From: Thermoanaerobaculia bacterium
GTDB taxonomy: Bacteria > Acidobacteriota > Thermoanaerobaculia > Multivoradales > UBA5704
Direction of reading: 5' to 3'
Length of the DNA: 16,953 nt
Assembly: GCA_044226625.1 (NCBI GenBank)
Contig: JBGAGQ010000096.1
Coordinates: forward strand, 1-16,953
Below the pieces are notes generated by a model. It was given only the letters and a program-made list of their open reading frames with translations. It was not told the origin of the DNA and did no database searches. The translations under genes were made by a program, and so were the position numbers. Positions within the stretch are counted from its first letter, which is position 1; every line of letters starts with the position of its first letter. This document shows positions 1 through 16,677 of the stretch, piece after piece.

Positions 1-456
1 GACAGCTGTACGCCGGCTCCCGTGATCACCAGCTTGCCCTACTCCGACTCCGGCACCACCTGCGGCTTCACCAACGACATCACGAACTACGGGGGGACCT
101 GCGGTACCGCGCTGCCTTTCCCCTACGGCGGCGAAGACGTGATTTACGCGTTCTCGACCACCGCCGGAAACAATGTGACGATCTCGGCCAGCCTCACCGG
201 TTCGACCGGCGATCTGGCGCTCTTCGTGATCGACACGACCTGCGGAGTGGCCGCGAACTGCAACCACCAGTCGCAGGACGCGATCGGCGTCGGTGCGGGT
301 CCCGAGAACGTCGCCGCGGCGTCCTACTCGGTCGGCAACCACTACATCTATGTCGACTCCTATTACGCGGCGGGCGTGACGGGAAGCTGCGGGACCTACA
401 CGCTGAACGTGTCGGGTTCCCTCCCGGTGGAGCTCGACCACTTCTCGATCGATTGA
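1..456 (+). CDS. Partial (5'-truncated) extracellular protein: Cys-containing PPC/pre-peptidase-C-terminal-like beta-sandwich ending in LPVELDHFSID
   Basis: Frame 1 is open from base 1 (DSCTPAPVITSLPYSDSGTTCGFTND...) to TGA at 454-456. Motifs 'GEDVIYAF', 'GDLALFV', 'HYIYVDSY' and 'GTYTLNV' resemble PPC-type domains. Composition is rich in Thr/Gly/Ser/Cys, as in secreted proteins. Confidence 0.8.
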   Translation, partial: DSCTPAPVITSLPYSDSGTTCGFTNDITNYGGTCGTALPFPYGGEDVIYAFSTTAGNNVTISASLTGSTGDLALFVIDTTCGVAANCNHQSQDAIGVGAGPENVAAASYSVGNHYIYVDSYYAAGVTGSCGTYTLNVSGSLPVELDHFSID

Positions 457-1955
457 TCCGGCGGCTGTCGGATCGATCGAACGGCGTCAGGGGGGCGGTC
501 GCGCCCATCCTGTTCGCCCTGTTCGCGACGGGGCCGCTCCTGGCTGGGGCGGCCCTTGGCGCGTCTGGGCCTTCGCTCGCCTTCGAGCAGCCGCGCGCGA
601 CCTTCGAGCCGGTGTACCAGCGCGCGGTCGTAGAGCAGGTCTTTCCGTTCACGAACCTGGGATCCCAACCCGTTTCGATCCTCGCCGTTCGCCCCCGGTC
701 GGAGGGCGGGACGGGCGAGGCCGTGCCGCGCCAGGTGCCCCCTGGAGGGAAGGGTGAGATCCGGGTGCGCCAGCCGGTCGGCGACCGGCTCGGTCTGAGC
801 GCGTTCCGCATCGCGATCGACACCGACGATCCCGGCGCGCCCCTCCTACGCCTCGGCCTCTCGGGGTTCGTCGAATCGGCCTACGAGCCGCAGGCCCCCC
901 GTCTCGACTTCGGTACCCTCTTCACGGAGGCCGGCGGCGAGCGCTCGATCGAGCTCGCCAGCCGAGAGGTCGAACGCCTGGAGGTGCGGTCGATCGCCGG
1001 AGCTCCCGGGTTTCTCGACGTACGGGTGGCCGGACGAAGCGGAGAGGTGGGGGAGGGCGTGCGGATTGTCGCGCGCGTCGCGACCGGCGCGCCGATCGGC
1101 ATTCACAATGGGACGCTCGTGGTCTCGACCAACGTACCGAATCAGCCGGAGGTGGCGGTGCCGTGGTCGGCCACCGTCTACGGGGATGTCGTGCCCGATC
1201 GGAATCCGGTCTCCTTCGACCTCGTCCGTCTCGGCCAGAGCTATGAGGCGTCGGTCGTCCTTCGAAGCCGAAGCGGCAAACCGGTGGCGGTCGATGGCAT
1301 CGCAGATCCGGACGGGCGGGTCGCCGGAACCGTCGGACCCTGCCCGGGCCCGGACGCTGGAGACTCCTGTCGGCAGCTTCGCCTGAGCGGCCTCGTGCTC
1401 GCGACCGGAGCTTTCGGCGGTACGCTCGCCGTACGGATCCGTGGCCAGGAGGCGCCGCTGCCGATCCGCTACGCGGGGCTCGCCATCTCGTCCACGGCGA
1501 AGGTGAAGACGCTCGGCTTCACCCAAGGGGAAGACGATTCGGAAGAGGTCACCGCGCCCCGACTGCCGTTCGATCCGGTGCGATCTCCGGCCGAGGCGCC
1601 CCCGTCGCGCGACGCTCCGACCGAGGAGACGCGTCCGGTGTCGACGCTCCACTGGCAGGCCTCGAAAGAGGAGGGCATCTTCGGCTACCGGGTGCTGCGC
1701 TCCACTTCGCGGCTCGGCCCGTTCGTCCGGGTCGACTCGAGCCTGATTCGCGTTCCCGCGGAGCGGAACGAGAAAAATACCTATGCATTTAAGGATTTCG
1801 GCGTGGTGCCGGGGGCGACTTACTATTACTATCTCGACCTCGTGACCACGAGCGGCGAAGTGCGCCGCTTTTCCGGGGTTCTGTCGAAGACGGTGTCGTC
1901 CGCGCCAGTGTCCCCGCGGACGACCGATGCCCCGAGCCCTCCCCCCAACGACTGA
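453..1955 (+). CDS. Exported DUF1573 (PapD-like Ig) domain protein with further Ig-like domains, a Pro-rich linker and a C-terminal FnIII/Ig-like domain
   Basis: The TTG start overlaps the upstream TGA. There is a signal-peptide-like N-terminus (IRRLSDR..VAPILFALFATGPLLAGAALGA). 'FPFTNLGSQPVSI...VPPGGKGEIRV...IDTDDP' resembles DUF1573, although the usual CGC is absent. The C-terminal 'LHWQASKEEGIFGYRVLRS...YAFKDFGVVPGATYYYYLDLVTTSG' (about 1632-1895) is FnIII-like. Confidence 0.8.
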   Translation: MIRRLSDRSNGVRGAVAPILFALFATGPLLAGAALGASGPSLAFEQPRATFEPVYQRAVVEQVFPFTNLGSQPVSILAVRPRSEGGTGEAVPRQVPPGGKGEIRVRQPVGDRLGLSAFRIAIDTDDPGAPLLRLGLSGFVESAYEPQAPRLDFGTLFTEAGGERSIELASREVERLEVRSIAGAPGFLDVRVAGRSGEVGEGVRIVARVATGAPIGIHNGTLVVSTNVPNQPEVAVPWSATVYGDVVPDRNPVSFDLVRLGQSYEASVVLRSRSGKPVAVDGIADPDGRVAGTVGPCPGPDAGDSCRQLRLSGLVLATGAFGGTLAVRIRGQEAPLPIRYAGLAISSTAKVKTLGFTQGEDDSEEVTAPRLPFDPVRSPAEAPPSRDAPTEETRPVSTLHWQASKEEGIFGYRVLRSTSRLGPFVRVDSSLIRVPAERNEKNTYAFKDFGVVPGATYYYYLDLVTTSGEVRRFSGVLSKTVSSAPVSPRTTDAPSPPPND

Positions 1956-3915
1956 TCCGAAAGCCCGCGTCGGCGGTGGAGGGATCCTCGTCCTGCTCGC
2001 GCTGGGCTTCTGCCTTGCGGCGCCGCTCCTGCGTGCGTCGCTCAGGGTCGCGACCGCTCCGCCTCCCCGGCCGGCACGCGCTCCGGTCGCCGCAGGCCCG
2101 GCGAAACCCGACCCGCGTCCGAATCTCCTGTTGATCACGGTCGACACGCTGCGTCCCGACGCGTTGGGATGGGTCGCGGGCAAGAACGAAACGCCGGCGA
2201 TCGATGCGCTCGCGGCCGAAGGGGCGCGGTTTGCCGTTGCCGTCTCCCCGGTGCCGCTCACGCTGCCGGCGCACGCCTCGATCCTCACCGGCCTGCTGCC
2301 GCGTCGGCACGGGATCCACGACAACGGCCAGCCCCTCCCCGCGGGCGTCGAGACGCTCGCGCAGCGGCTCCAGCGGAACGGTTACCTCACGGCGGCGTTC
2401 GTGTCCGGTTTCCCGCTCGAGTCGACGTTCGGCCTCGACCGCGGTTTTTCCCGCTACGACGACCGGCTGCCCGAGGGGAGCGAGGGGTGGACCGAGCGCC
2501 GGGCCTTCGACACCACCACGGCGGCGCTCGGCTGGATCGCCAAGGCGAAGACTCCCTGGTTCGTCTGGGTCCACTACTACGATGCTCACGATCCCTACGA
2601 GCCCCCGCGAAGCTTCTGGCGGCCAGGGCCGAGAGGGGCCTACGACGGCGAGGTGGCTTACGTCGACGCCTGGATCGGCCGCCTGCGCGAGGGCATTCCG
2701 GCGGGTTCAGCGAAAAACCTGCTCACCCTCTTCACCGCCGACCACGGCGAGGCGCTGGGCGAGCACCGCGAGAAGACGCACGGCTATTTCCTCTACGACT
2801 CGACCGTCGTCGTGCCCCTGGTGATCCATTTCCCCGGGCGGGTAAAGTCCCAGGACAGCCGGGAGGCCGCCCGGCTGATCGACCTCGCGCCGACCGCCCT
2901 CGATCTGCTCGGCCAAGAGCGCGCGCGCGGAATCGACGGCCTCAGCCTCCGCCCTCTCCTCGAAGGCAAGCCCCAGAGCGTGCCCGCGGCCTATCTCGAA
3001 ACCCGCCTGCCCTGGGTCTATTTCGGCTGGTCGCCCCTGTCCGCCCTGCGCGAGAACGGCTGGAAGCTGATCGCGGCGCCCCGGCCGGAGCTCTACGACC
3101 TCAAGGCCGACGCCGGCGAGGGGACCAACCGCATCGATGCGGCACGGCCCGTCGCGCGCCGCCTCGCGACGGCGCTGCGAGAGATCGAGGCGCGCCCCGA
3201 GCGGGCCGCCGCGGCGAACGACGAGCCCGAGACGGTCGCGAAGCTGCGTTCTCTCGGCTACCTAGGAGCTGGAGGGTCCGCGGAGCGGCCCCCGGCGGGG
3301 CTCGCCGATCCCAAGGATCGGATCGAGCTTCGCGACCGCCTGGCCGAGGGGGAGGAAGCGCTGCGGGAGGGGCGCGTCGCCGCCGCGCTCTCGGCATTCG
3401 ACGCGGTGCTCGCGGCCGAGCCGACGAATCGCTTCGCGAGCCTGCGCTCGGGCACCGCGCTGCTCAAGGCCGGGCGGATCGCTGAGGCGGCTGAGCGGCT
3501 GGGCCGGGCGGTCGAGCTCGATCCCGAGCGCGCCGAGGCCCGGTTCGCTCTGGGGGACGCCCTGATGCGCCTCGGCCGCTATCGCGAGGCGGTGCCGCAG
3601 TGGATGGAGCTCGCCAAGCGGCAGCCGCGCCGCGCCGACGCCTGGTCGAACCTCGGCCTCGCGCTCGGTAAGGCCGGCCGCGCCGCCGACCTCGACCGGG
3701 CGGTCGGCGCGCTCGCCGAGGCGGCACGCCTCGAACCGGGCGACCCGCGGCGCAAGAGCGATCTGGCCGACGCCCATCTCGCGCTCGCCCGCCGCGCGCT
3801 CGAGGAAGGAAATCCGAAAGGGGCCGAGCGCGCTCTGCGCAAGGCGGTCGAGATCGACCCCGGAATTCGAGCCCGGGCCGCGGCGGACCCCAAGCTCTTG
3901 CCTCTATTGAAATAG
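1927..3915 (+). CDS. Sulfatase-like hydrolase/transferase (alkaline phosphatase superfamily) with N-terminal signal/anchor and C-terminal TPR repeats
   Basis: Motifs PNLLLITVDTLRPD, PLTLPAHASILTG, WVHYYDAHDPY, TADHGE, THGYFLY and ELYDL..D.GE..N. TPR-like helices follow from about 3330 (AEARFALGDALMRLGRYREA; ADAWSNLGLALGKAGR). The start codon is uncertain because of a 29-nt overlap with the upstream gene. Confidence 0.9.
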   Translation: MPRALPPTTDPKARVGGGGILVLLALGFCLAAPLLRASLRVATAPPPRPARAPVAAGPAKPDPRPNLLLITVDTLRPDALGWVAGKNETPAIDALAAEGARFAVAVSPVPLTLPAHASILTGLLPRRHGIHDNGQPLPAGVETLAQRLQRNGYLTAAFVSGFPLESTFGLDRGFSRYDDRLPEGSEGWTERRAFDTTTAALGWIAKAKTPWFVWVHYYDAHDPYEPPRSFWRPGPRGAYDGEVAYVDAWIGRLREGIPAGSAKNLLTLFTADHGEALGEHREKTHGYFLYDSTVVVPLVIHFPGRVKSQDSREAARLIDLAPTALDLLGQERARGIDGLSLRPLLEGKPQSVPAAYLETRLPWVYFGWSPLSALRENGWKLIAAPRPELYDLKADAGEGTNRIDAARPVARRLATALREIEARPERAAAANDEPETVAKLRSLGYLGAGGSAERPPAGLADPKDRIELRDRLAEGEEALREGRVAAALSAFDAVLAAEPTNRFASLRSGTALLKAGRIAEAAERLGRAVELDPERAEARFALGDALMRLGRYREAVPQWMELAKRQPRRADAWSNLGLALGKAGRAADLDRAVGALAEAARLEPGDPRRKSDLADAHLALARRALEEGNPKGAERALRKAVEIDPGIRARAAADPKLLPLLK

Positions 3916-8497: not shown

Positions 8498-9892
8498 ATG
8501 AGCCTCCTGACGTTTCGTGATCCCCGGCTCTCGCGCTGGCAATCGGTCGTCGACGAGGTGTTGAGCCGCGGCTCGGAAGGCTCGACGCCCGGTACGCGCC
8601 GACCGACTCTTGATCACCCCGACGCCGCTGCGGCGGCATCCGCTTGTGCCCACGCCACGACCACGGCAGGCGCCGGCGCCGCATCAGCGGCCTCCGACCC
8701 CGGCGGTCCGCCGGTGTTTTCGAGCTCGAAGCCCCCCAGGACGCGGGACGAGTGTGCGCGGCTCGCGTTGCGCCTGGCCACCGCGAAGGTCGAGCGAAAG
8801 CCGGCCGAGGAGATCGAGGCGCTCGAAGAGGATCTCAAGTTCGGCGTCTGCGATCCGGTCTGGGCGGCCGTGGTCGCCCAATACGTCGCCGTCGTCGACG
8901 TCGAAAAGGACGCGATCCCCTATCGGCCATCGACCGGGCCGGGCGATCCGGCGCCTCTCGTCCTGCCCGAAAACGCCACGGTGGCCTTCCTCGGGGACTG
9001 GGGCACCGGCACGCCGGAGGCGATCGCCCTCCTGGAGAAGGTGGCCGCCCACCGGCCGGACGTCCTGATCCACCTGGGAGACGTCTACTACAGCGGCACA
9101 GAACGGGAGAACGACGAATACTTCCTCGCCCCGATCGACAGGATCTTCGGCCGCGGGGGCGATCGGCCGCTCCCGGTGTTCGCGCTGCCTGGAAACCACG
9201 ACATGTACTCGGGGGGCGCCGGCTACTACCGTACGCTCGACCGTCTGAACCGGCCGCCGTTCGCCCCGGAGGGGCAGCTTCAAACCCACAGCTTCTTCGC
9301 CCTGCGAAGCTCCGGCTGGCAGATCCTCGGGGTGGACACCGCGCTTCATGACGAGGACCTGTTCGATGTCGCGACCTCGATGACCTACCTCGAAGAGCCC
9401 GAGCTCGCCTGGATGAAAGACAAGATCCGGGGCGCGGCCGGCCGGCGCACGATCCTGCTCTCGCACCATCAACTCTTCTCGGCCTTCGTCGCGATCGGCC
9501 CGGAAGAGAACGGCGACCGCACGATGAATCCGCGCCTTCGGGCGCAGCTCGACGACGTTCTCGGCTCGATCGACCTCTGGCTCTGGGGGCACGAGCACAA
9601 CCTGGCGATTTTCGCCCCCTACGCCGGCCTCGCGCGGGGCCGCTGCATCGGTCATGGCGCGATTCCGGTTCTCGCGAGCCTCGATCCCTACACGCCGCGC
9701 GCGGTCGGAAAGATTCCCCTCCTGCCGAGTCCCACCGATCCCGCTCAGCCGATCCGCCTCGGCACGACGGGCGAGGCCTACAACCACGGTTACGTCATCG
9801 CCCGCCTCGACGACGCCGCGAAAACGGCGCGCGTCTCGTACTACCAGGATGCGGGGGACGAGCTGATGTTCGAGGAGGTGGTCGGGGGGTGA
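8498..9892 (+). CDS. Calcineurin-like metallophosphoesterase with an N-terminal extension of about 160 aa
   Basis: All five motif blocks are present: FLGDWGTG, IHLGDVYYSG, LPGNHDMY, LSHHQ and WLWGHEH. Confidence 0.92.
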   Translation: MSLLTFRDPRLSRWQSVVDEVLSRGSEGSTPGTRRPTLDHPDAAAAASACAHATTTAGAGAASAASDPGGPPVFSSSKPPRTRDECARLALRLATAKVERKPAEEIEALEEDLKFGVCDPVWAAVVAQYVAVVDVEKDAIPYRPSTGPGDPAPLVLPENATVAFLGDWGTGTPEAIALLEKVAAHRPDVLIHLGDVYYSGTERENDEYFLAPIDRIFGRGGDRPLPVFALPGNHDMYSGGAGYYRTLDRLNRPPFAPEGQLQTHSFFALRSSGWQILGVDTALHDEDLFDVATSMTYLEEPELAWMKDKIRGAAGRRTILLSHHQLFSAFVAIGPEENGDRTMNPRLRAQLDDVLGSIDLWLWGHEHNLAIFAPYAGLARGRCIGHGAIPVLASLDPYTPRAVGKIPLLPSPTDPAQPIRLGTTGEAYNHGYVIARLDDAAKTARVSYYQDAGDELMFEEVVGG

Positions 9893-12210
9893 AGCACGGC
9901 GGGATTCGGGCTCAGAGCCGTTTCGAAAAATGGAACGGCTTGGATGCCGATCGACTCGATCAGATGCTCGGTCTGCCGCGTTTCCTAGGCCGATCGGGAA
10001 GGACGACGCGCCTGGCCGAGCTGCTCGCGGATTTCGGCTTTCTTCAGGCCAAGTTGTCGAAGCGAGGACCCGCGGCCCTGCTCGCCGATTTCGCCGCGGT
10101 GAACGACCCCGCCCTGGCCCCGATTCGCGACGCCCTGCGCAACGCGGCGGCGGTGCTCGAGGAGCAGCCGCTCGAGCTGCCGACCCAGCTGCTCGCTCGC
10201 TTGAGCGCCGCCGCCGAGCCGCCGGTTCCGGCTCTCTTGGAGCAAGCCCGGCGCGCCGATTTCGGGCCCTGGATTCTTCCCGTCAATCCGTGCCTCGGAA
10301 GGCCCGGTTCCTCGCGGCTCGCGACCCTGCGCGGCCATACGGCGCAGGTCACCTCGGTCGCCGCGCTGCCCGACTCCCGACATGCCGTCTCCGGATCGAG
10401 CGATCACACCTTGCGGCTCTGGGATCTACAGGAAGGGGTGTCCGTGCGCCCGATGGTAGGGCATGCCGGACCGGTCTACGGCGTGGCCGTCTCCCCCGAC
10501 GGCAAGCTCGCCGTCTCGGCCTCCGACGATCGCACCGTCAGGGTGTGGGACGTTTCGACCGGCGCTCTTCGGTGGACGCTCCACGGCCATGCGGGGCGCG
10601 TCCGGGCGGTCGCGACGACCCCCGACGGCCGGTGGGTGATCTCGGGCTCGGAAGATGGGACCTTGAAGGTTTGGGATCTCGCCGCCGGCACGTTGCTGCG
10701 CACCCTGGAAAGGCACGCGGGCGAGGTCTTCGCGGTGGCCGTCGCCCTGGACGGCAGGTTCGCCTTTTCGGGTTCGATGGACCGGACGATCAAAGTTTGG
10801 GATCTGGACGAAGGCCGGTTGCGCTCGACGCTCTCCGGGCACGGCGACTCCGTCTGGGCGATCGCGCCGATTCCGAACGCCCCGCGGATCGTCTCCGCCT
10901 CGACGGACGGAACGCTCAAGGTTTGGGACCTCGACGCCGAGCGCGAGCTCCGTACGCTCGGCGAACCGGGTCCGGCGGTGACTTCGCTCGCCGTGACCGC
11001 CGACGGCCGATCCGTCTTCGCCGACTCGGGCGGCTGGACACTCGTGCGTTGGGACCTCGATCGCGGCGAGGTGGTCGCGCGTTTCGCGGGGCACAGCACC
11101 TATCTGAACGCGGTCGCCTTGACGCCGGACGGATCGAAAGCGATCTCGGCCTCGGAGGATCTGACGCTCCGGGTTTGGAATCTCGCGGGCGGGGGCGACC
11201 TGCCGCAGCCGCATCATGCCGAGGCGGTCGTCTCGATCTCCTGCACTCCCGAGGGGCGCGCCGTCACCGCGTCGAACGACGCGACGTTGAAGGTCTGGGA
11301 TCTCGCCACGGGCGAGGAGCGGCTGAGCCTCACGGGGCACGACGCCCATGTGGTGGCGGTCGTCGTCACGCCAGACGGACGGCGCGCGGTCTCCGGCTCC
11401 GGCGACCGCACGGTCAAGGTATGGAATCTGGACACTGGTGCCGAGATCTGCACCGGACGAGGCCACACCGACGAGCTGGTGAGCCTCGCCTTGACGCCCG
11501 ACGGCCGCCGCGCCGTATCCGGCGCGAAGGACCATACGGTCGCGGTGTGGGATCTCGAGAGCGGCGAATGCCTTGCTCGGCTCAAGGGGCACGAGGAATG
11601 GGTGACCTCGGTCGCCGTCTCGCCGGACGGGCGCCTCGCGCTCTCCGGTTCCAGGGATCGAACGCTCAAGGTTTGGGACCTTTCGAGCGGGACGTTGCTT
11701 CGCACGCTCGTCGGCCACGAGGGCTGGGTCAACGAGGTCGCGATCCTGCCGGACGGCCGCCGCGCCGTCTCGGTCTCGGAAGATTTCACCGTGCGGGCGT
11801 GGGATCTCGAGACCGGCGAGGCGCTGTTCTGCGCGAACGCGGGAGGCTTCATGGTCTATGCCCTGGCCGTCAGCCCCGACGGTCGCCGAGCGATCACCGG
11901 TGGAGCCGACCTCGCCGTGCGGATCTGGGATCTCGCGACGGGCGAGGAGGTCGACTGTTATTGGCACTCGCGCGGCCTCTATGGTGTCAAAAACGTGATC
12001 GTGACGCCCGACGGATCGAAGGTCGTCTCGGTCGCGGACGACGGATCGTTGCAGGTCTGGGACCTCGAGCGAGGCGAGTGGATTTCGACCTACCACGGTG
12101 AGCAGATGTTCTTCGTCTGCGCGGCGGCGCCGGACGGCAAGACTCTGATCGCCGGAGATCGGCTGGGGTTCGTCCACATCCTGCGACTCGTGGGGTGGGA
12201 AGACCTCTGA
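9889..12210 (+). CDS. APAF-1-helical-domain-like + 15 WD40 repeats (7+8 double beta-propeller); no NTPase
   Basis: The GTG start overlaps the upstream TGA (GTGA). N-terminal 'LPRFL..SG...RLAELLADFGFLQAKLSKRGPAALLADF...IRDALR...L.EQP.ELPTQLLARL'. I counted 14 GH..WD-type repeats plus a terminal 'CAAAPDGKTLIAGD..GFVHILRL' blade. Confidence 0.92.
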   Translation: MKHGGIRAQSRFEKWNGLDADRLDQMLGLPRFLGRSGRTTRLAELLADFGFLQAKLSKRGPAALLADFAAVNDPALAPIRDALRNAAAVLEEQPLELPTQLLARLSAAAEPPVPALLEQARRADFGPWILPVNPCLGRPGSSRLATLRGHTAQVTSVAALPDSRHAVSGSSDHTLRLWDLQEGVSVRPMVGHAGPVYGVAVSPDGKLAVSASDDRTVRVWDVSTGALRWTLHGHAGRVRAVATTPDGRWVISGSEDGTLKVWDLAAGTLLRTLERHAGEVFAVAVALDGRFAFSGSMDRTIKVWDLDEGRLRSTLSGHGDSVWAIAPIPNAPRIVSASTDGTLKVWDLDAERELRTLGEPGPAVTSLAVTADGRSVFADSGGWTLVRWDLDRGEVVARFAGHSTYLNAVALTPDGSKAISASEDLTLRVWNLAGGGDLPQPHHAEAVVSISCTPEGRAVTASNDATLKVWDLATGEERLSLTGHDAHVVAVVVTPDGRRAVSGSGDRTVKVWNLDTGAEICTGRGHTDELVSLALTPDGRRAVSGAKDHTVAVWDLESGECLARLKGHEEWVTSVAVSPDGRLALSGSRDRTLKVWDLSSGTLLRTLVGHEGWVNEVAILPDGRRAVSVSEDFTVRAWDLETGEALFCANAGGFMVYALAVSPDGRRAITGGADLAVRIWDLATGEEVDCYWHSRGLYGVKNVIVTPDGSKVVSVADDGSLQVWDLERGEWISTYHGEQMFFVCAAAPDGKTLIAGDRLGFVHILRLVGWEDL
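10327..12189 (+). repeat. WD40 coding repeats (about 126-nt period, e.g. recurring ACGCTCAAGGTTTGGGACCT-like units)
   Basis: Roughly 42-aa repeats with the consensus GH...V..VA..PDGR.AVSGS.D.TLKVWDL. Confidence 0.85.
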
Positions 12211-12211
12211 T

Positions 12212-14317
12212 ATGGCCTCGGAGGTCGAGCTCTACGGGCTGCAGAGCCTTGCCCGTCACCTCGTCGACAGCGCCGACGCCGAGCGTCTGAACGCCCTCCT
12301 GTCGCGGTTCGATTTCCTGCGCCGCAAGCTCGCCGCCGTGGGCCTGGTCGAGCTGTTGGCCGATTTCGATCGGCTGCCGCCGGACGCGCCGCTACGCTCG
12401 GTACAGGCCGCCCTCCGGCTGTCGGCTCCGGCACTGCAGCGCGAGCCGCGGGAGCTCGCGGGGCAGCTGGTCGGCCGCCTCTCCGCCGCGACGCCCGAGG
12501 GGGTCCGATTGCTACGGGACGCCGAAGCCCACCCCGACGGACCGTCGCTCGTTCCGCGGTCGCCTTCTCTCCTTTCCGCGACGGGTGGGCTGCGCCAGGC
12601 GTTGCGAGCGGGAGGGGGCCATCTCGCGGTCACCGCCGACGGGCGCTGGGTTATCGCGGGTGGGAGCATTGTCTGGGTCTGGGACCTGACCGGCGTCCGG
12701 CCGCTGCGCTGGTTTCGCGGTCCCCGGAGCGGCATGAGCGCGATGGCCCTCGCCCCCGACCCGCGTTGGCTGATCGTCGCCGATCCGAAGGGAGGCCTCG
12801 CGATCTATCTCTGGGAAACCGGTCAGCGCAGTCACCGGTGGAGAGGGCACCCAGGGGGTGCCACGGCGGTCGCCGCCCTCGACGGGAACCGCTTCCTCTC
12901 CGCGGGAAAGGACGGCCTGATCAAGCTTTGGAGCTTGAAGGGCGGTCGCGCGCTCGCGACGTTTCGCGGCCACGACACCGAGGTGGTCGGGTTGGTGGTC
13001 GCCCCCGACCGAACCCGGTTTGCGAGCGGTTCGGTCGACGGCGCGATCCTCGAATGGAGCCTCGACGCCGGGGCTCCGGCGCGTCGTCTCGCGAGAGGCC
13101 CCGAGCGGCTCGAGGCGCTCCTCGGCAGTCCGGACGGGAGGTTTCTCGTCGCGTCCGGGGCCAAGCCGAAGGTCGTGATCTGGGACTGGGCGTTTGGCGA
13201 GGTGGTCCGCGAGATGTCTTCTCCCGACGCTTCGACGCCACGGCTCGCGATCACCCCGGACAGCCGACGGCTCGCGATCTCCTCGAGCTCCGAGATGCGG
13301 CTCTGCGATCTACCGCCGGGGGACGAGAGCCGAGTCGTGGCGCGCGGCCGCGTCGGCGGCCGGATCGCTTTTCTGCCGAGCGGCGAGCGCTGGGTCAACG
13401 ACGAATCGGGATTGCGCGAATGGGAGCTGACGCGCGAGGTCGTCGCCGATCCCGGTCCGGGATCTCAATCGCTTGCGGTCACCTCGGACGGTCGCCTGGC
13501 GGTGGCGGGGTCGCCTGACGGCTCGATCGCGGTTTGGGATCTCTCAACCCGGCACGAGGAGCTGCGCTTCGCCGCTTCGTCGGTCTCGCTCGGCGCGCTG
13601 GCGCTGTCGCCGGACGGTCGGCAGGTCTTCGTCGGCGACCGCCAAGGCGGCATTCACCGTTTCGATCTCCGAACGGGGGAGAGGTTGCCGGCGCCTCGGC
13701 CGCTCGAACCGGGCAATGGAGTGGCGGCGCTCGAGCTCACCGACGATGGCCGGCACCTGGTGGCCGGCGCGGTCTGGGGAGACGTTCTCGCCTGGGACCT
13801 CGCGGAGGAGCGCCTGATCTCCGAGCATCGATTCGAGCCGTCCTACCTGATCACCCTCGCTCTCATCCCGGGTACGACGCAAGCGATCGTCTGCTGTAAC
13901 GACGAAGACGACCAATCTCCCTGGGTCCTCGACTGGAGAGAAGGCCGGCGGTTGCGACGCATCGGGGGCCGCCACGACGCCGTAATCGCCGTGGCGGTTT
14001 CGGCCGACGGCCGCCGCGCGGCGACCGGCGGGCAGAGCGGGAGCCTCAAGGTCTGGAGCCTACGGGGCAGGCATCCGACCTACTTCCCGGGGCATGGCGG
14101 CGGCGTGAATTCCATCGCGTTCCTTCCCGGCGGGCGCCAGGTCGTGGCGGTGGCCCTGGAGGGAATCCTCCGCGTCTGGGAAGTCGCCACCCGGAAATGC
14201 CTCGCCACCTTTACCGGCGATTCGGGTTTCCGCCGCTGCGCCGTCGCTCCGGATGGCCGGACGATCGTGGTTTCCGGCGAGAAGGACGAGCTGCATTTCC
14301 TCCGCTGGCGCCGTTGA
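12212..14317 (+). CDS. APAF-1-helical-domain-like + about 14 divergent WD40 repeats; no NTPase; paralog of the upstream gene
   Basis: ATG lies 1 nt after the previous stop. N-terminal 'YGLQSLARHLVDS....RLNALLSRFDFLRRKLAAVGLVELLADFD...VQAALRLSA..L...P.ELAGQLVGRL'. WD40 blades follow, ending in 'TFTGDSGFRRCAVAPDGRTIVVSGEKDELHFLRW'. Confidence 0.9.
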   Translation: MASEVELYGLQSLARHLVDSADAERLNALLSRFDFLRRKLAAVGLVELLADFDRLPPDAPLRSVQAALRLSAPALQREPRELAGQLVGRLSAATPEGVRLLRDAEAHPDGPSLVPRSPSLLSATGGLRQALRAGGGHLAVTADGRWVIAGGSIVWVWDLTGVRPLRWFRGPRSGMSAMALAPDPRWLIVADPKGGLAIYLWETGQRSHRWRGHPGGATAVAALDGNRFLSAGKDGLIKLWSLKGGRALATFRGHDTEVVGLVVAPDRTRFASGSVDGAILEWSLDAGAPARRLARGPERLEALLGSPDGRFLVASGAKPKVVIWDWAFGEVVREMSSPDASTPRLAITPDSRRLAISSSSEMRLCDLPPGDESRVVARGRVGGRIAFLPSGERWVNDESGLREWELTREVVADPGPGSQSLAVTSDGRLAVAGSPDGSIAVWDLSTRHEELRFAASSVSLGALALSPDGRQVFVGDRQGGIHRFDLRTGERLPAPRPLEPGNGVAALELTDDGRHLVAGAVWGDVLAWDLAEERLISEHRFEPSYLITLALIPGTTQAIVCCNDEDDQSPWVLDWREGRRLRRIGGRHDAVIAVAVSADGRRAATGGQSGSLKVWSLRGRHPTYFPGHGGGVNSIAFLPGGRQVVAVALEGILRVWEVATRKCLATFTGDSGFRRCAVAPDGRTIVVSGEKDELHFLRWRR

Positions 14318-14364: not shown

Positions 14365-16677
14365 CTAGGCCCCCGCGCCTTCCTCAGGTCCGAATAGGTC
14401 CTCCCAGAGAAGGTCGGCGATCCGGCCGTTCCGCTCCTTGAGCCGCACCCGTTCCTCTTTTACCTCGTCCTTGGCTGCGATGAACTCCTGGAAGCTCGCG
14501 TGGTAGAGGCGATACTGCTTCTGCCGCTCTCCCGACTCCGGATCTTCCGTTTCGGCCGCGTAGAGGAACTCCCGCCATTGGTCGAGTACGGACTGAACCC
14601 GCCGGGTGTCATCCACCCCGGCGAAGCGGGCGATCAGCCCGAGGGAAATCGGCTTTTCCACCACCGTGAGCGCTTCGAGCACCGGCAGCTTCCAGTCGAA
14701 CCAAGCCTGCTCGTCGCGCGACCGGATGCGCCGCCAGTGGTCCTCGTAGTAGCGCGCGAGCCCCCTCGGCAGCTGCTCGAAGCGAAGGTCCTGATAGGTC
14801 CCGGCCTCGATTTCCGGCAGCACGTGACGTAGGTACATGAAGTTGCCCTGGCTGCGCTCGACCATCGCTTCGACGAATCCCTCCGCCTGGAGGCCCTGCT
14901 CCCCGGCCCAGGCGAGGAGACCCGGGCTCAAACGGCGGCGGACCAGCTCGCGGACGTCGTCGAGGTTGGCGCGGTCGTCCTGCCGGATCTCGAAGGTCCG
15001 GGGCTCGAAATCCAGCAGCAGCGGCGCCCCGCCGGGTCGCGAGCTGAGGACCATGTGGACGCCGGGCGGCAGTCGGCGGGGAAGGAAGAGGAGGTTCGCG
15101 TCGGGGGCCGACGGGTCTCGGATCGCCTCGTCGAGGGCATCGACCACGACGGTCACCTTCTCCTGGGGGTCCAGGCGAGCGGAGATCTGGTCGAAAAGAT
15201 CGGCGAGGAAACGGCCGTTCGTGGTCGCCTCGGGAGGCAGCGAGGAGTAGTCCAACCGGTAGGCGGCGATCAATTGGGCAGAGACGTTGGCGAGGAAATC
15301 CGCCGCGCTCTGAAGGCCTTCGGCGCGGATGTTGAAGTGGTGGACCCAGCCGTGGCGCCGCACCAGCTCGGCCATCAAGGAGGACTTGCCGATACCGGGC
15401 TCTCCTTCGAGCAGGAAGACGCCGCGCGGAGTCTCGGCGAGGAAGCGGTCGATCTCGGAAAAGATCCATTCCCGGCCGACGAAGGTGTCCGCCTCGTCGA
15501 CGAGAAGTCGGCCGAAGCCGCGGATCTTCTGCCGGATCTGCGGCGACACCTCTCGGATCGAGGGCATCCACCGCTCGGTTTCGGCCTCCGTCGGGCAGGT
15601 CGCGAGGGGATTGGCGAACAGCGCGTAGGCAAGCCACGAGGCGTCGCCCGGAAAGCGATCTCGCACCTCGATCCGCGCGGCCCGCGCCGCTTCGGCCACC
15701 GCGGTGCCCGCGAACAGGGCGCCGTAGAACGCCCGCGAGAAACAGAGCGCGGCCTCGTCGCGGACCGCCCACGAGGTGCCTAGGAACGCGCCCGCTCCGA
15801 CGTGGAAGAAGTCGTGCGCCCAGCCACCGAGGCCGGTAAGGGAAAACCCCGAGCGCGCGGTCTGGCAAGCGTTCAGGAAGATCAACGGCCGCCGGGACCG
15901 GAGGTTCGCGCGGTCGTAAAGATCGTCCGGCCGCAGCTCCGTCCCGCCTTCGAGCTGGATCCAGGCGCGCTGCGGCTCGTTCGCCGGAGTCGCGGCGTGG
16001 CTGGCGAAATGCCAGCCGTCATGGACGCCCTGGCCCAGAGATTCCACCACCGCCGCGGGGCGGGCGCCGATCTCTTCGACGAGACGGCCGTCGCTCCGTT
16101 GCGCGAGTAGGAGCTCGCGCTCCGCCTCGGTGTGGGAGAGGTTCGAGTCGCGCGGCGAGACCAGGGCGATCCGTCGCAGGGGGAGACGCGTGGCGTCCGG
16201 CACGCCGCGGAGCCAACGGGCGAGTGCGAACTCCTCGCCGAAGAACTTCCCCGGCCGGCTCTCCTGGTCGCGAAACTTCAATAGCTCCCACGGGATCCAC
16301 GGCTCGTCGGAGAGGACTTGGAGGGTCTGCACGGTGTCGCGCAGCCGCTCGAATCGCCTTTGCAAGGGCTCGGGGAAGAGCTTTTCGAACAGCCGCGCTC
16401 CCTTCCCCGCCAACCGACGTTCGACGTCCTCCGGCGCGGCGTCGCGCGGCAGAGCGCGAAGGTCTTCGAACAGGGACTGGAAATAGGCCGCCGGCTGCCG
16501 GTCCAGCGCGATCGGTCCGAACTCCTCGAAATTACCTCCGGGTTGCTCTTCACGAAAAACCAACGTGTAGAAGAGCTGATGCCTCGTCTCGCTCGCCTCG
16601 TAACGGACGCGCAGGATGAGGTCGGGCAAGTTGGATCGAGGCGCGGCCGGACCAGAGGCCGGATCGGTTCCGATCAT
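14365..16677 (-). CDS. CHAT (caspase-like) protease fused to a STAND (NACHT/AAA_16-like) NTPase with helical and winged-helix domains, lacking a C-terminal sensor
   Basis: CHAT motifs: DEPWIPWELL, WHFASHA (His227, 15997-15999), IFLNACQT (Cys271, 15865-15867), GAGAFLGTSWAV and WLAYALF. STAND motifs: FVGREW, Walker A GEPGIGKSS (GxxGxGKS at 15382-15405), Walker B VVVDALDEA (15124-15150), SSRP, SQGNFMYL and winged-helix end YRLYHASFQEF. Confidence 0.93.
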   Translation of the reverse strand: MIGTDPASGPAAPRSNLPDLILRVRYEASETRHQLFYTLVFREEQPGGNFEEFGPIALDRQPAAYFQSLFEDLRALPRDAAPEDVERRLAGKGARLFEKLFPEPLQRRFERLRDTVQTLQVLSDEPWIPWELLKFRDQESRPGKFFGEEFALARWLRGVPDATRLPLRRIALVSPRDSNLSHTEAERELLLAQRSDGRLVEEIGARPAAVVESLGQGVHDGWHFASHAATPANEPQRAWIQLEGGTELRPDDLYDRANLRSRRPLIFLNACQTARSGFSLTGLGGWAHDFFHVGAGAFLGTSWAVRDEAALCFSRAFYGALFAGTAVAEAARAARIEVRDRFPGDASWLAYALFANPLATCPTEAETERWMPSIREVSPQIRQKIRGFGRLLVDEADTFVGREWIFSEIDRFLAETPRGVFLLEGEPGIGKSSLMAELVRRHGWVHHFNIRAEGLQSAADFLANVSAQLIAAYRLDYSSLPPEATTNGRFLADLFDQISARLDPQEKVTVVVDALDEAIRDPSAPDANLLFLPRRLPPGVHMVLSSRPGGAPLLLDFEPRTFEIRQDDRANLDDVRELVRRRLSPGLLAWAGEQGLQAEGFVEAMVERSQGNFMYLRHVLPEIEAGTYQDLRFEQLPRGLARYYEDHWRRIRSRDEQAWFDWKLPVLEALTVVEKPISLGLIARFAGVDDTRRVQSVLDQWREFLYAAETEDPESGERQKQYRLYHASFQEFIAAKDEVKEERVRLKERNGRIADLLWEDLFGPEEGAGA

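Follow-up and report, generated by a model that had tools for sequence, protein, structure and literature searches.

Does the tail of one exported protein supply the missing strand of another? The question is raised by the window analysed here, that is, the whole stretch of 16,953 nucleotides at the start of contig C104 (G000:C104:1-16953) of an acidobacterial genome of 6.6 Mb (67.7% G+C, 97.9% complete). Two genes overlap there. Gene 1 (plus strand, frame 1) is open from the contig end and its product ends in ...TYTLNVSGSLPVELDHFSID; the gene lacks its first codons because the window begins at the contig end. Gene 2 starts with a TTG at 453 that overlaps the gene 1 stop codon, encodes a signal-peptide-like N-terminus and ends in a fibronectin type III (FN3) domain that lacks the first strand of the fold, strand A. 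A preliminary description of this DNA had proposed that the tail of gene 1 completes the domain of gene 2 in trans. The tail, the strand-less FN3 domains and a C25-family peptidase related to PorU together point to a protein-sorting system in several phyla. That an incomplete FN3 domain captures the tail by strand complementation, and that the C25 peptidase then processes the tailed protein (the cargo), is a reading for and against which we consider the chances even.

A modular C-terminal tag on unrelated exported proteins

Translation of frame 1 agrees with the preliminary description that gene 1 ends in LPVELDHFSID directly followed by a stop codon (421-456). The Pfam PPC match of gene 1 is weak, scoring 15.1 bits, under the cut-off. 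A full-length orthologue from the same genus (L008, ~178 amino acids) has a signal peptide, a Cys-containing PPC-like beta-sandwich (a weak likeness) and the tail PVELDQFSID-stop. Searches of Pfam and NCBIfam yielded no match of gene 1 to the sorting domains TIGR04183 or PF18962, and the common tail element measures only 10-11 residues. Modelled alone, gene 1 gave a mean predicted local distance difference test score (pLDDT) of 59.3, which is poor overall; tail residues 143-151 scored below 50 and were unstructured, with no strand. We considered whether the tail is the start of an FN3 domain broken by a frameshift or by assembly and rejected this, as gene 2 has its own signal peptide right past the stop and the stop is conserved in orthologues.

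The tail is not confined to gene 1. A six-frame scan of the whole host genome detected seven open reading frames (ORFs) of coding type, with high G+C at third codon positions, that end in [LT]P[VA]EL-x-x-[FY]-x-[IV][DE]; one variant has a final G and another runs four residues past the motif. Read by eye, two of the seven products are PPC-like and two are tandem propeller-like paralogues; the others are a small Cys-rich, a P-domain-like and a large BNR/propeller-like protein. These fold types are readings of the sequences and not family calls. Six-frame matches to P[VTIA]EL..F number 24 in the host genome, and in no case does the match run on into an FN3 domain.

Three samples of genomes were compared: 41 relatives, 401 genomes of the phylum and 101 genomes of the gammaproteobacterial order around Tahibacter. 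In the relatives, the DNA pattern for P-[VA]-E-L-x-x-[FY]-x-[IV]-[DE]-stop matched 64 times, in 16 of the 41 genomes, with no match of the reversed control, and all 64 matches end in a real stop (TAA, TAG or TGA). Each of the 11 complete cargo ORFs of loci L001-L010 has a signal-peptide-like start (by eye), and their folds differ. Tails stop 0-4 residues beyond the motif and are followed by no transmembrane helix and basic tail. Loosening the pattern to P-V-x-L-x-x-F-x-[IV]-[DE]-stop gave 103 matches in 17 of the 101 gammaproteobacterial genomes, versus 4 control matches. Tahibacter tails have the form PV[S/T/A/Q/G]LQ-F-[IV][DE], with position 3 being Glu in most other genomes, and one Methylomirabilota metagenome-assembled genome (MAG) contains 13 strict tails. 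Dozens of unrelated cargo genes, dispersed over many contigs, keep motif and stop; they belong to at least three phyla, and the motif has no internal copies. Together these data show that unrelated exported proteins share the tail (consensus P-V-[E/x]-L-x-x-[F/Y]-x-[I/V]-[D/E]-COOH) as a modular tag at their C-terminus, as the preliminary description had supposed.

FN3 domains without strand A

The product of gene 2, here called a type I acceptor, continues from its DUF1573 match through further immunoglobulin (Ig)-like sequence to a Pro-rich linker (Table 1). Its C-terminal domain reads VSTLHWQASKEEGIFGYRVLRS...YAFKD...YYYYLDLVTTSGEVRRFSG and is followed by 25 more residues up to the stop at 1953-1955; the preliminary description had ended the protein too early, at ...RRFSG. 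It was right that a Pro-rich linker precedes the domain and that no PVEL-like strand stands there, as both the translation and the comparison of orthologues show. An AlphaFold2 model from an alignment of 20 such domains (A1) has a mean pLDDT of 91.7 and strands at residues 7-14, 19-27, 51-58, 66-75, 80-82 and 87-90, with no strand ahead of the Trp-bearing strand B. Foldseek and VIA-align assigned the model to the FN3 fold (Ihog, Z 10.1, root-mean-square deviation 2.2, 92 residues aligned; titin and myomesin were matched too), and the alignment to single-domain FN3 chains begins ~12-22 residues in, i.e. past strand A. The predicted domain is thus a clear FN3 match with only strands B to G of the seven (A, B, C, C', E, F, G), as the preliminary description had anticipated for the domain modelled alone. 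The Pfam fn3 score of P0076 is under the cut-off (15.6 vs 25 bits), and no Pfam or NCBIfam model covers the strand-less domain. Completion in cis by upstream residues of gene 2 was considered and rejected: the 25-38 residues before strand B are Pro-rich and variable among orthologues, and the start of the model, which was built of the domain alone, is strandless.

In complete relatives of the domain, P-V-x-L-x-x-F-x-A stands immediately before strand B, with the same spacing as the tail, P-V-x-L-x-x-F-x-[A/I/V]. Examples are P0152 (LPVTLSAFAAVPGDGVVTLRW), L027 (VLVTSFGA...VVVEW) and L029 (AVVSSFRT...VLVEW). Tail and domain are therefore contiguous in other proteins, which had been claimed beforehand; in P0152, LPVTLSAFAAVPGDGVVTLRWATASE... 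is followed by a type IX secretion system (T9SS) C-terminal domain.

Three tail-less genomes of the same family (G018, G013 and G017; loci L027, L029 and L035) encode very large C25-type proteins, in open frames of 982-1522 amino acids, with a complete FN3-like domain that has its own strand A ahead of the peptidase region; such an unsplit order may be ancestral. In another genome of the same genus as the host (L018, G002:C41:153670-156876), only the last ~50 residues of the gene 2 orthologue are left before the conserved sulfatase-TPR gene, and the acceptor gene looks decayed or deleted.

A second kind of acceptor, type II, is a protein of 120-230 amino acids with a signal peptide or lipobox, a disordered linker, the strand-less domain and a basic end. 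The host genome has a copy on contig C133 (72569-73102, minus strand). The domain follows the pattern NT[LI][RK]W-TASE-DNFG[FY]D[VI]YR...Y[YW]YYVESIS...RE-FTP. A profile search of 1.84 billion representatives returned 27,275 proteins at E<=0.001; the best 150 of these matches include 39 small single-domain proteins, none of which has a strand-A-like motif upstream. At E<=1e-10, 981 candidates gave 550 clusters of type II homologues, with 'hypothetical protein' and 'Lipoprotein' as the only names given. A lipobox-like Cys is present in roughly half of the type II proteins among the matches listed (by eye), and the C-terminal end carries a conserved basic stretch, a Lys-rich KAKAK.

For the gene neighbourhood we collected 80 public type II loci with up to 10 kb of flank on each side, 1.3 Mb in all. 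As named in the records, they come from Thermoanaerobaculia, Holophagae, other Acidobacteriota, Methylomirabilota, 'Deltaproteobacteria' MAGs and Rhodanobacteraceae-type Gammaproteobacteria, the last with the genera Tahibacter, Dokdonella, Pseudofulvimonas and Rudaea. Tahibacter soli, Tahibacter sp. UC22_41 and Pseudofulvimonas gallinarii DSM 21944 are cultivated carriers; since such strains exist, the idea is directly testable.

The gammaproteobacterial type II proteins (L094, L113, L130, L097 and L135) contain G-x-C-G-D-Q before the domain and a Cys in I-D-P-C within it, both of which are missing from the acidobacterial copies. The two cysteines suggest that a disulfide tethers the N-terminal segment to the sandwich.

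A PorU-like peptidase, gene order and co-occurrence

In 55 of the 80 loci a C25 peptidase gene lies near the type II gene (<=10 kb, median distance 276 nucleotides); it encodes a protein of ~890 amino acids (Peptidase_C25, E 1e-76). In the host genome this is P0154 (C133 73099-75792, minus strand, 897 amino acids; Pfam Peptidase_C25, PF01364, E 7e-77), whose gene overlaps the type II gene start by 4 nucleotides. Its best NCBIfam matches are PorU (NF033707), at 212.2 bits vs a cut-off of 420, and the PorU2 N-terminal model, at 140.3 vs 450. Because these scores are under the cut-offs, we regard the peptidase as a relative of PorU and not as PorU proper; NCBIfam holds no curated model for this C25 subfamily. 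H663 (in GHGG) and C705 (in TCYSAPFD), which we take to be the catalytic His/Cys pair, are invariant in 45 aligned sequences.

Peptidase and acceptor domain are also fused. Nine of the 11 longer homologues of the type II domain are C25 peptidases with the domain at the C-terminus, again without the strand-A motif, and P0134 is an additional C25-FN3 fusion fragment, 59% identical to P0154 over 174 residues. A search for PorV (NF033710) gave no match in the host genome, and one for SprA (TIGR04189) gave none in the host genome nor in control genomes. A PMT_2-type glycosyltransferase gene is present in 44 of the 80 type II loci, and Wzt/Wzm-type ABC transporter genes in many. The neighbour cluster 'ABC_Wzt' counts 39 loci, a figure that is only rough because it is inflated by shadow ORFs and merged components; the '174-aa' neighbour cluster is the acceptor itself.

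Two further features of these neighbourhoods were noted. The type II gene on C133 is, like gene 2, followed by a sulfatase gene (L151:6515-7942, minus strand), with a sulfotransferase-like gene adjoining. This may be chance or may be a tie to a sulfated glycan. Three other genomes, but not the host genome, have a second C25 paralogue, ~45% identical to P0154, directly after a tail gene ending in PVELT-F-TIE (G001:C118:249723-252371, G002:C42:65866-68566 and G003:C23:43671-46350); it starts ~60-100 nucleotides past the tail gene.

The order seen in the window, a tail gene directly upstream of a type I acceptor gene, is repeated in G004, G005 (C198), G026 (with two tandem tail genes), G037 and G050. 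Three gammaproteobacterial loci show it as well: small PPC-like proteins ending in LPVALQNFSID, LPVSLQSFSVE and LPVTLQGFSVE precede partners of 475-533 amino acids with the strand-less domain at the C-terminus. In G026 and G037, tail genes, type I, C25 and type II genes all lie within ~7 kb. In L154 and L158 (G469), the ORF past the tail gene stops before the strand-less FN3 domain; the profile detects the domain in a separate ORF further downstream, owing either to a true split or to an assembly frameshift.

Acceptors were called at E<1e-7 with one sequence or at >=100 bits with profile A1; these cut-offs, like those for the C25 orthologue, were set after the score gaps had been seen. Among the 41 relatives, the 16 genomes with tails are the same 16 that have an acceptor (E<1e-7) and a C25 orthologue (417-2055 bits). 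C25 matches in tail-less relatives reach 118 bits at most. Weaker FN3 matches in 9 other relatives sit in very large ORFs, and the three such ORFs that were read have their own strand A. The 16 carriers spread over 8 families (by computed family numbering), and 4 non-carriers fall in four of those families. In the sample of 401, six genomes have strict tails; an acceptor (>=100 bits) was detected in those 6 and in G050, the next best match being 78 bits, and the C25 orthologue in the same 6 (E<=1e-60). The carriers belong to six different families. G050 has tails with one mismatch, PVELLDFHAE-stop and PVELLEFTVN-stop, the second 1.3 kb upstream of an acceptor domain, and a divergent C25 gene (97 bits) 2 kb from its other acceptor. 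The unpublished genomes G063 and G189, with weak FN3 matches only, are counted among the tail-less genomes of the phylum, and we make no claim on them alone. Around Tahibacter, tails (loosened pattern) occur in 17 genomes and acceptors (>=100 bits) in 24, all 17 included; 23 of the 24 have the C25 gene, and the remaining 77 genomes have none of the three. Hence in all three samples, with strict or loosened patterns, a genome with tails always has the strand-less FN3 domain as well, the co-occurrence for which the preliminary description had called, and also the PorU-like peptidase.

Docking, processing and comparison with known systems

We propose a system of three parts: Sec-exported cargo with the tag; FN3 domains without strand A, in type I and type II acceptors; and a PorU-like C25 peptidase beside or fused to type II. 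The tag, having the FN3 strand-A pattern, would complement the incomplete FN3 domain as a beta-strand, docking in trans on its exposed edge. Docking would present the cargo to the C25 peptidase, which would cleave it or transfer it, in the manner of a sortase, to an envelope glycoconjugate; genes for a PMT_2-type glycosyltransferase and for Wzm/Wzt-type transporters are usual in the cluster. Within such a system, gene 1 and gene 2 would form a conserved cognate pair of tag and acceptor. As the C25 peptidase, a component that the preliminary description had missed, is encoded beside or fused to strand-less FN3, sortase-like processing is likelier than anchoring by docking alone. In its most explicit form, which we put forward tentatively and with somewhat more doubt than belief, the proposal describes a T9SS-independent PorU-like sortase: the tag, as strand A, would rebuild a sandwich like that of the T9SS C-terminal domain (CTD) in trans on the peptidase or a partner lipoprotein, and the cargo would be cleaved and joined to an envelope glycoconjugate, in Acidobacteriota, Methylomirabilota and Gammaproteobacteria; gene 1 and gene 2 would be one of its additional cognate pairs.

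Docking was assessed by co-folding the gene 2 domain (A1) and the 30 C-terminal residues of gene 1 (A2). The interaction prediction score from aligned errors (ipSAE) was 0.57, 0.58 and 0.57 in the three runs vs 0.10 for the best control, the pLDDT of the partner was at least 53 and the runs share at least 84% of contacts. Of 80 solved complexes 58 attain the pass mark, as do 2 of 110 mismatched pairs; scores up to 0.60 come from only 7 of the 80 solved complexes and from both passing mismatches, so that a pass in this range is false more often than true, unless the pairing was probable from the outset. Of the earlier proposal that the PVEL tail completes the partner sandwich in trans, the surroundings stood: the tag is modular, the domain is modelled as strand-less, the spacing is that of strand A, and the genes co-occur and adjoin in two phyla. 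The placement of the tail as strand A did not gain the same standing.

Several observations weigh against complementation followed by processing. The co-folding verdict was 'weak support', and no interface was given for the tail at the strand-A position. Tail position 3 (E vs S and other variants) does not covary with acceptor residues. The linkage of type II genes to tails is moderate (10 tails in 9 of the 80 loci). Loosened-pattern tails are absent from 7 of the 24 gammaproteobacterial acceptor genomes, and in five of these a search with one mismatch gave control-level matches, the only plausible variant being PVELIEYDVQ-stop in G442, inside its own cluster; tail-less acceptor genomes may be incomplete MAGs or have divergent tags. 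The counts of co-occurrence overstate independence because the compared genomes are related. In gammaproteobacterial type II proteins, the conserved N-terminal CGDQ segment and the second Cys in the domain could hold a segment in cis near the strand-A site, and a semi-conserved hydrophobic residue stands three positions ahead of strand B in many of the type II proteins. Finally, cleavage or transfer by the C25 peptidase is suggested by its kinship to PorU alone, with a score under the PorU cut-off (212 vs 420 bits).

The same data can be read without strand complementation. The C25 peptidase could recognise the tag directly, as a sortase reads LPXTG, with the strand-less FN3 domain acting as glycan adaptor, acceptor substrate or anchor. 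Three-way co-occurrence and linkage fit this equally well, the weakness of the co-fold support counts in its favour, and the conserved basic stretch of type II, with its Lys-rich KAKAK end, could offer amines. We consider direct reading unlikely: it accounts neither for the exact match of the tag to the strand-A pattern of complete relatives, nor for the absence of precisely that strand from the FN3 domains, nor for type I genes that immediately follow a single tail gene with every C25 gene far away, the window being one example.

Less probable again is the version of the preliminary description, in which the tail stays and tethers the cargo permanently to lipoprotein or DUF1573 scaffolds while the C25 peptidase acts elsewhere, e.g. 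in scaffold maturation. Conserved tail-acceptor gene pairs with no C25 gene nearby, in the window and other loci, would suit such permanent docking, as would the lipobox-like Cys of type II proteins and the weak co-fold support. An unrelated peptidase is hard to square with the fusion of the acceptor domain to C25 in most of its longer homologues, and with a C25 orthologue that is found only in acceptor genomes and in nearly all tail genomes. That the parts have no joint function, the tail being a leftover first strand of FN3 or the last strand of the cargo and the co-occurrence coming from shared islands or ancestry, is very improbable: the genomes are related and some of the genes are clustered and could travel together, but motif and stop are kept in scattered, unrelated cargo genes of at least three phyla, the carriers of the phylum sample belong to different families, and the tail lies outside the fold in the (low-confidence) model of gene 1.

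Complementation with processing by C25 resembles known systems in part. The CTD of T9SS cargo spans ~70-100 residues, and as here marks the cargo C-terminally by an Ig/FN3-type element. The signal described here is ~10 residues long, a single strand in place of a whole domain, and the rest of the sandwich is separate or fused to the peptidase. Further likenesses are a C25-family peptidase with PorU as its best NCBIfam match and genes for glycan synthesis and export nearby; PorV, in contrast, was not found in the host genome, the peptidase scores under the PorU cut-off, and the carriers are Acidobacteriota, Methylomirabilota and Gammaproteobacteria. The preliminary description had placed the tail in an FCB-group (Fibrobacterota, Chlorobiota, Bacteroidota) setting, which does not apply, the organism being an acidobacterium. 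PorU (PG0026) is proposed to cleave the CTD and to join the cargo to a linker by a peptide bond (PMC4560394).

Chaperone-usher pili, type V pili and archaeal threads share with the proposal that an incomplete Ig-like sandwich would be completed by a strand of another polypeptide. Pilus subunits lack the C-terminal G strand, which a chaperone strand or the next subunit's N-terminal extension donates; in type V pili a C-terminal strand does so. Here, the N-terminal strand A is missing and the donor would be the extreme C-terminus of an unrelated globular cargo. Of a PapD-type chaperone, an usher and subunits lacking the G strand, only DUF1573 was matched; no usher or polymer is in evidence, and no search was aimed at ushers. 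The chaperone-usher analogy drawn earlier thus has nothing behind it beyond the name DUF1573.

SpyTag is an engineered split-domain tag. Like the tag in SpyTag/SpyCatcher and in strand-swapped FN3 domains, the tail would supply one strand of a beta-sandwich as a short peptide. In 4m6a, described as a solved FN3 scaffold with a swapped N-terminal strand, strand A is exchangeable between chains. Those cases are engineered or belong to the crystal state, whereas the split proposed here would be natural, genome-encoded and used by many cargoes. LPXTG, PEP-CTERM/exosortase and GlyGly-CTERM/rhombosortase signals are likewise short C-terminal motifs on many unrelated secreted proteins, with a dedicated enzyme that co-occurs. 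In these signals a transmembrane helix and a basic tail follow the motif; here the motif itself closes the protein, its last residue being acidic, and the enzyme belongs to the C25 peptidases.

The signals of sortase, exosortase, rhombosortase and PorU decide which exported bacterial proteins remain on the surface. C-terminal sorting signals with a dedicated sortase-like enzyme are already known; the receptor principle would be new if strand complementation is confirmed. We know of no other natural case in which a sorting signal is the missing strand of its receptor fold, and this would be the first. In a search of full-text literature we found neither the tag nor strand-less FN3 receptors described, nor any PorU-like peptidase from Acidobacteria or Xanthomonadales-type bacteria. 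If true, the proposal would introduce a new signal class whose tag is just ten residues long, extend PorU-type chemistry beyond Bacteroidota, and name a function for a conserved family that now goes as 'hypothetical protein' or 'Lipoprotein', with no Pfam or NCBIfam model. It would also provide a natural pair of short peptide and domain of possible use as a protein tag.

Table 1. Features of gene 1 and gene 2 in the window.
Feature	Position	Strand	Basis
Gene 1, 5'-truncated; small secreted PPC-like beta-sandwich with tail (cargo)	1..456	+	Translation, family alignment A2, orthologue L008
C-terminal tag LPVELDHFSID, followed by TGA 454-456	421..453	+	Translation; motif recurrent in the genome and in relatives
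Gene 2, 500 amino acids, type I acceptor; signal peptide, DUF1573-type Ig region, Pro-rich linker, C-terminal FN3 domain without strand A	453..1955	+	Translation, Pfam, orthologues
DUF1573 (PF07610), gene 2 residues 43-127	579..833	+	E 3.3e-7, 30.7 bits, above the cut-off of 26.1
Pro-rich linker, residues 371-395, length and sequence variable among orthologues, no strand-A motif	1563..1637	+	Translation, comparison of orthologues
FN3 domain without strand A (strands B, C, C', E, F, G only), proposed tag receptor	1638..1895	+	AlphaFold2 model, FN3 fold matches, alignment A1

Downstream of the pair, gene 3 (1927-3915, plus strand) overlaps the end of gene 2 and encodes a sulfatase (PF00884, E 4e-35) fused to TPR repeats. 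A calcineurin-like phosphoesterase is encoded at 8498-9892. Further along, at 9889-14317 (plus strand) and 14365-16677 (minus strand), lie genes for two large WD40-repeat proteins (773 and 701 amino acids) beside a convergent CHAT-protease/NACHT-type NTPase (770 amino acids), an architecture that recalls signalling or defence NTPases.

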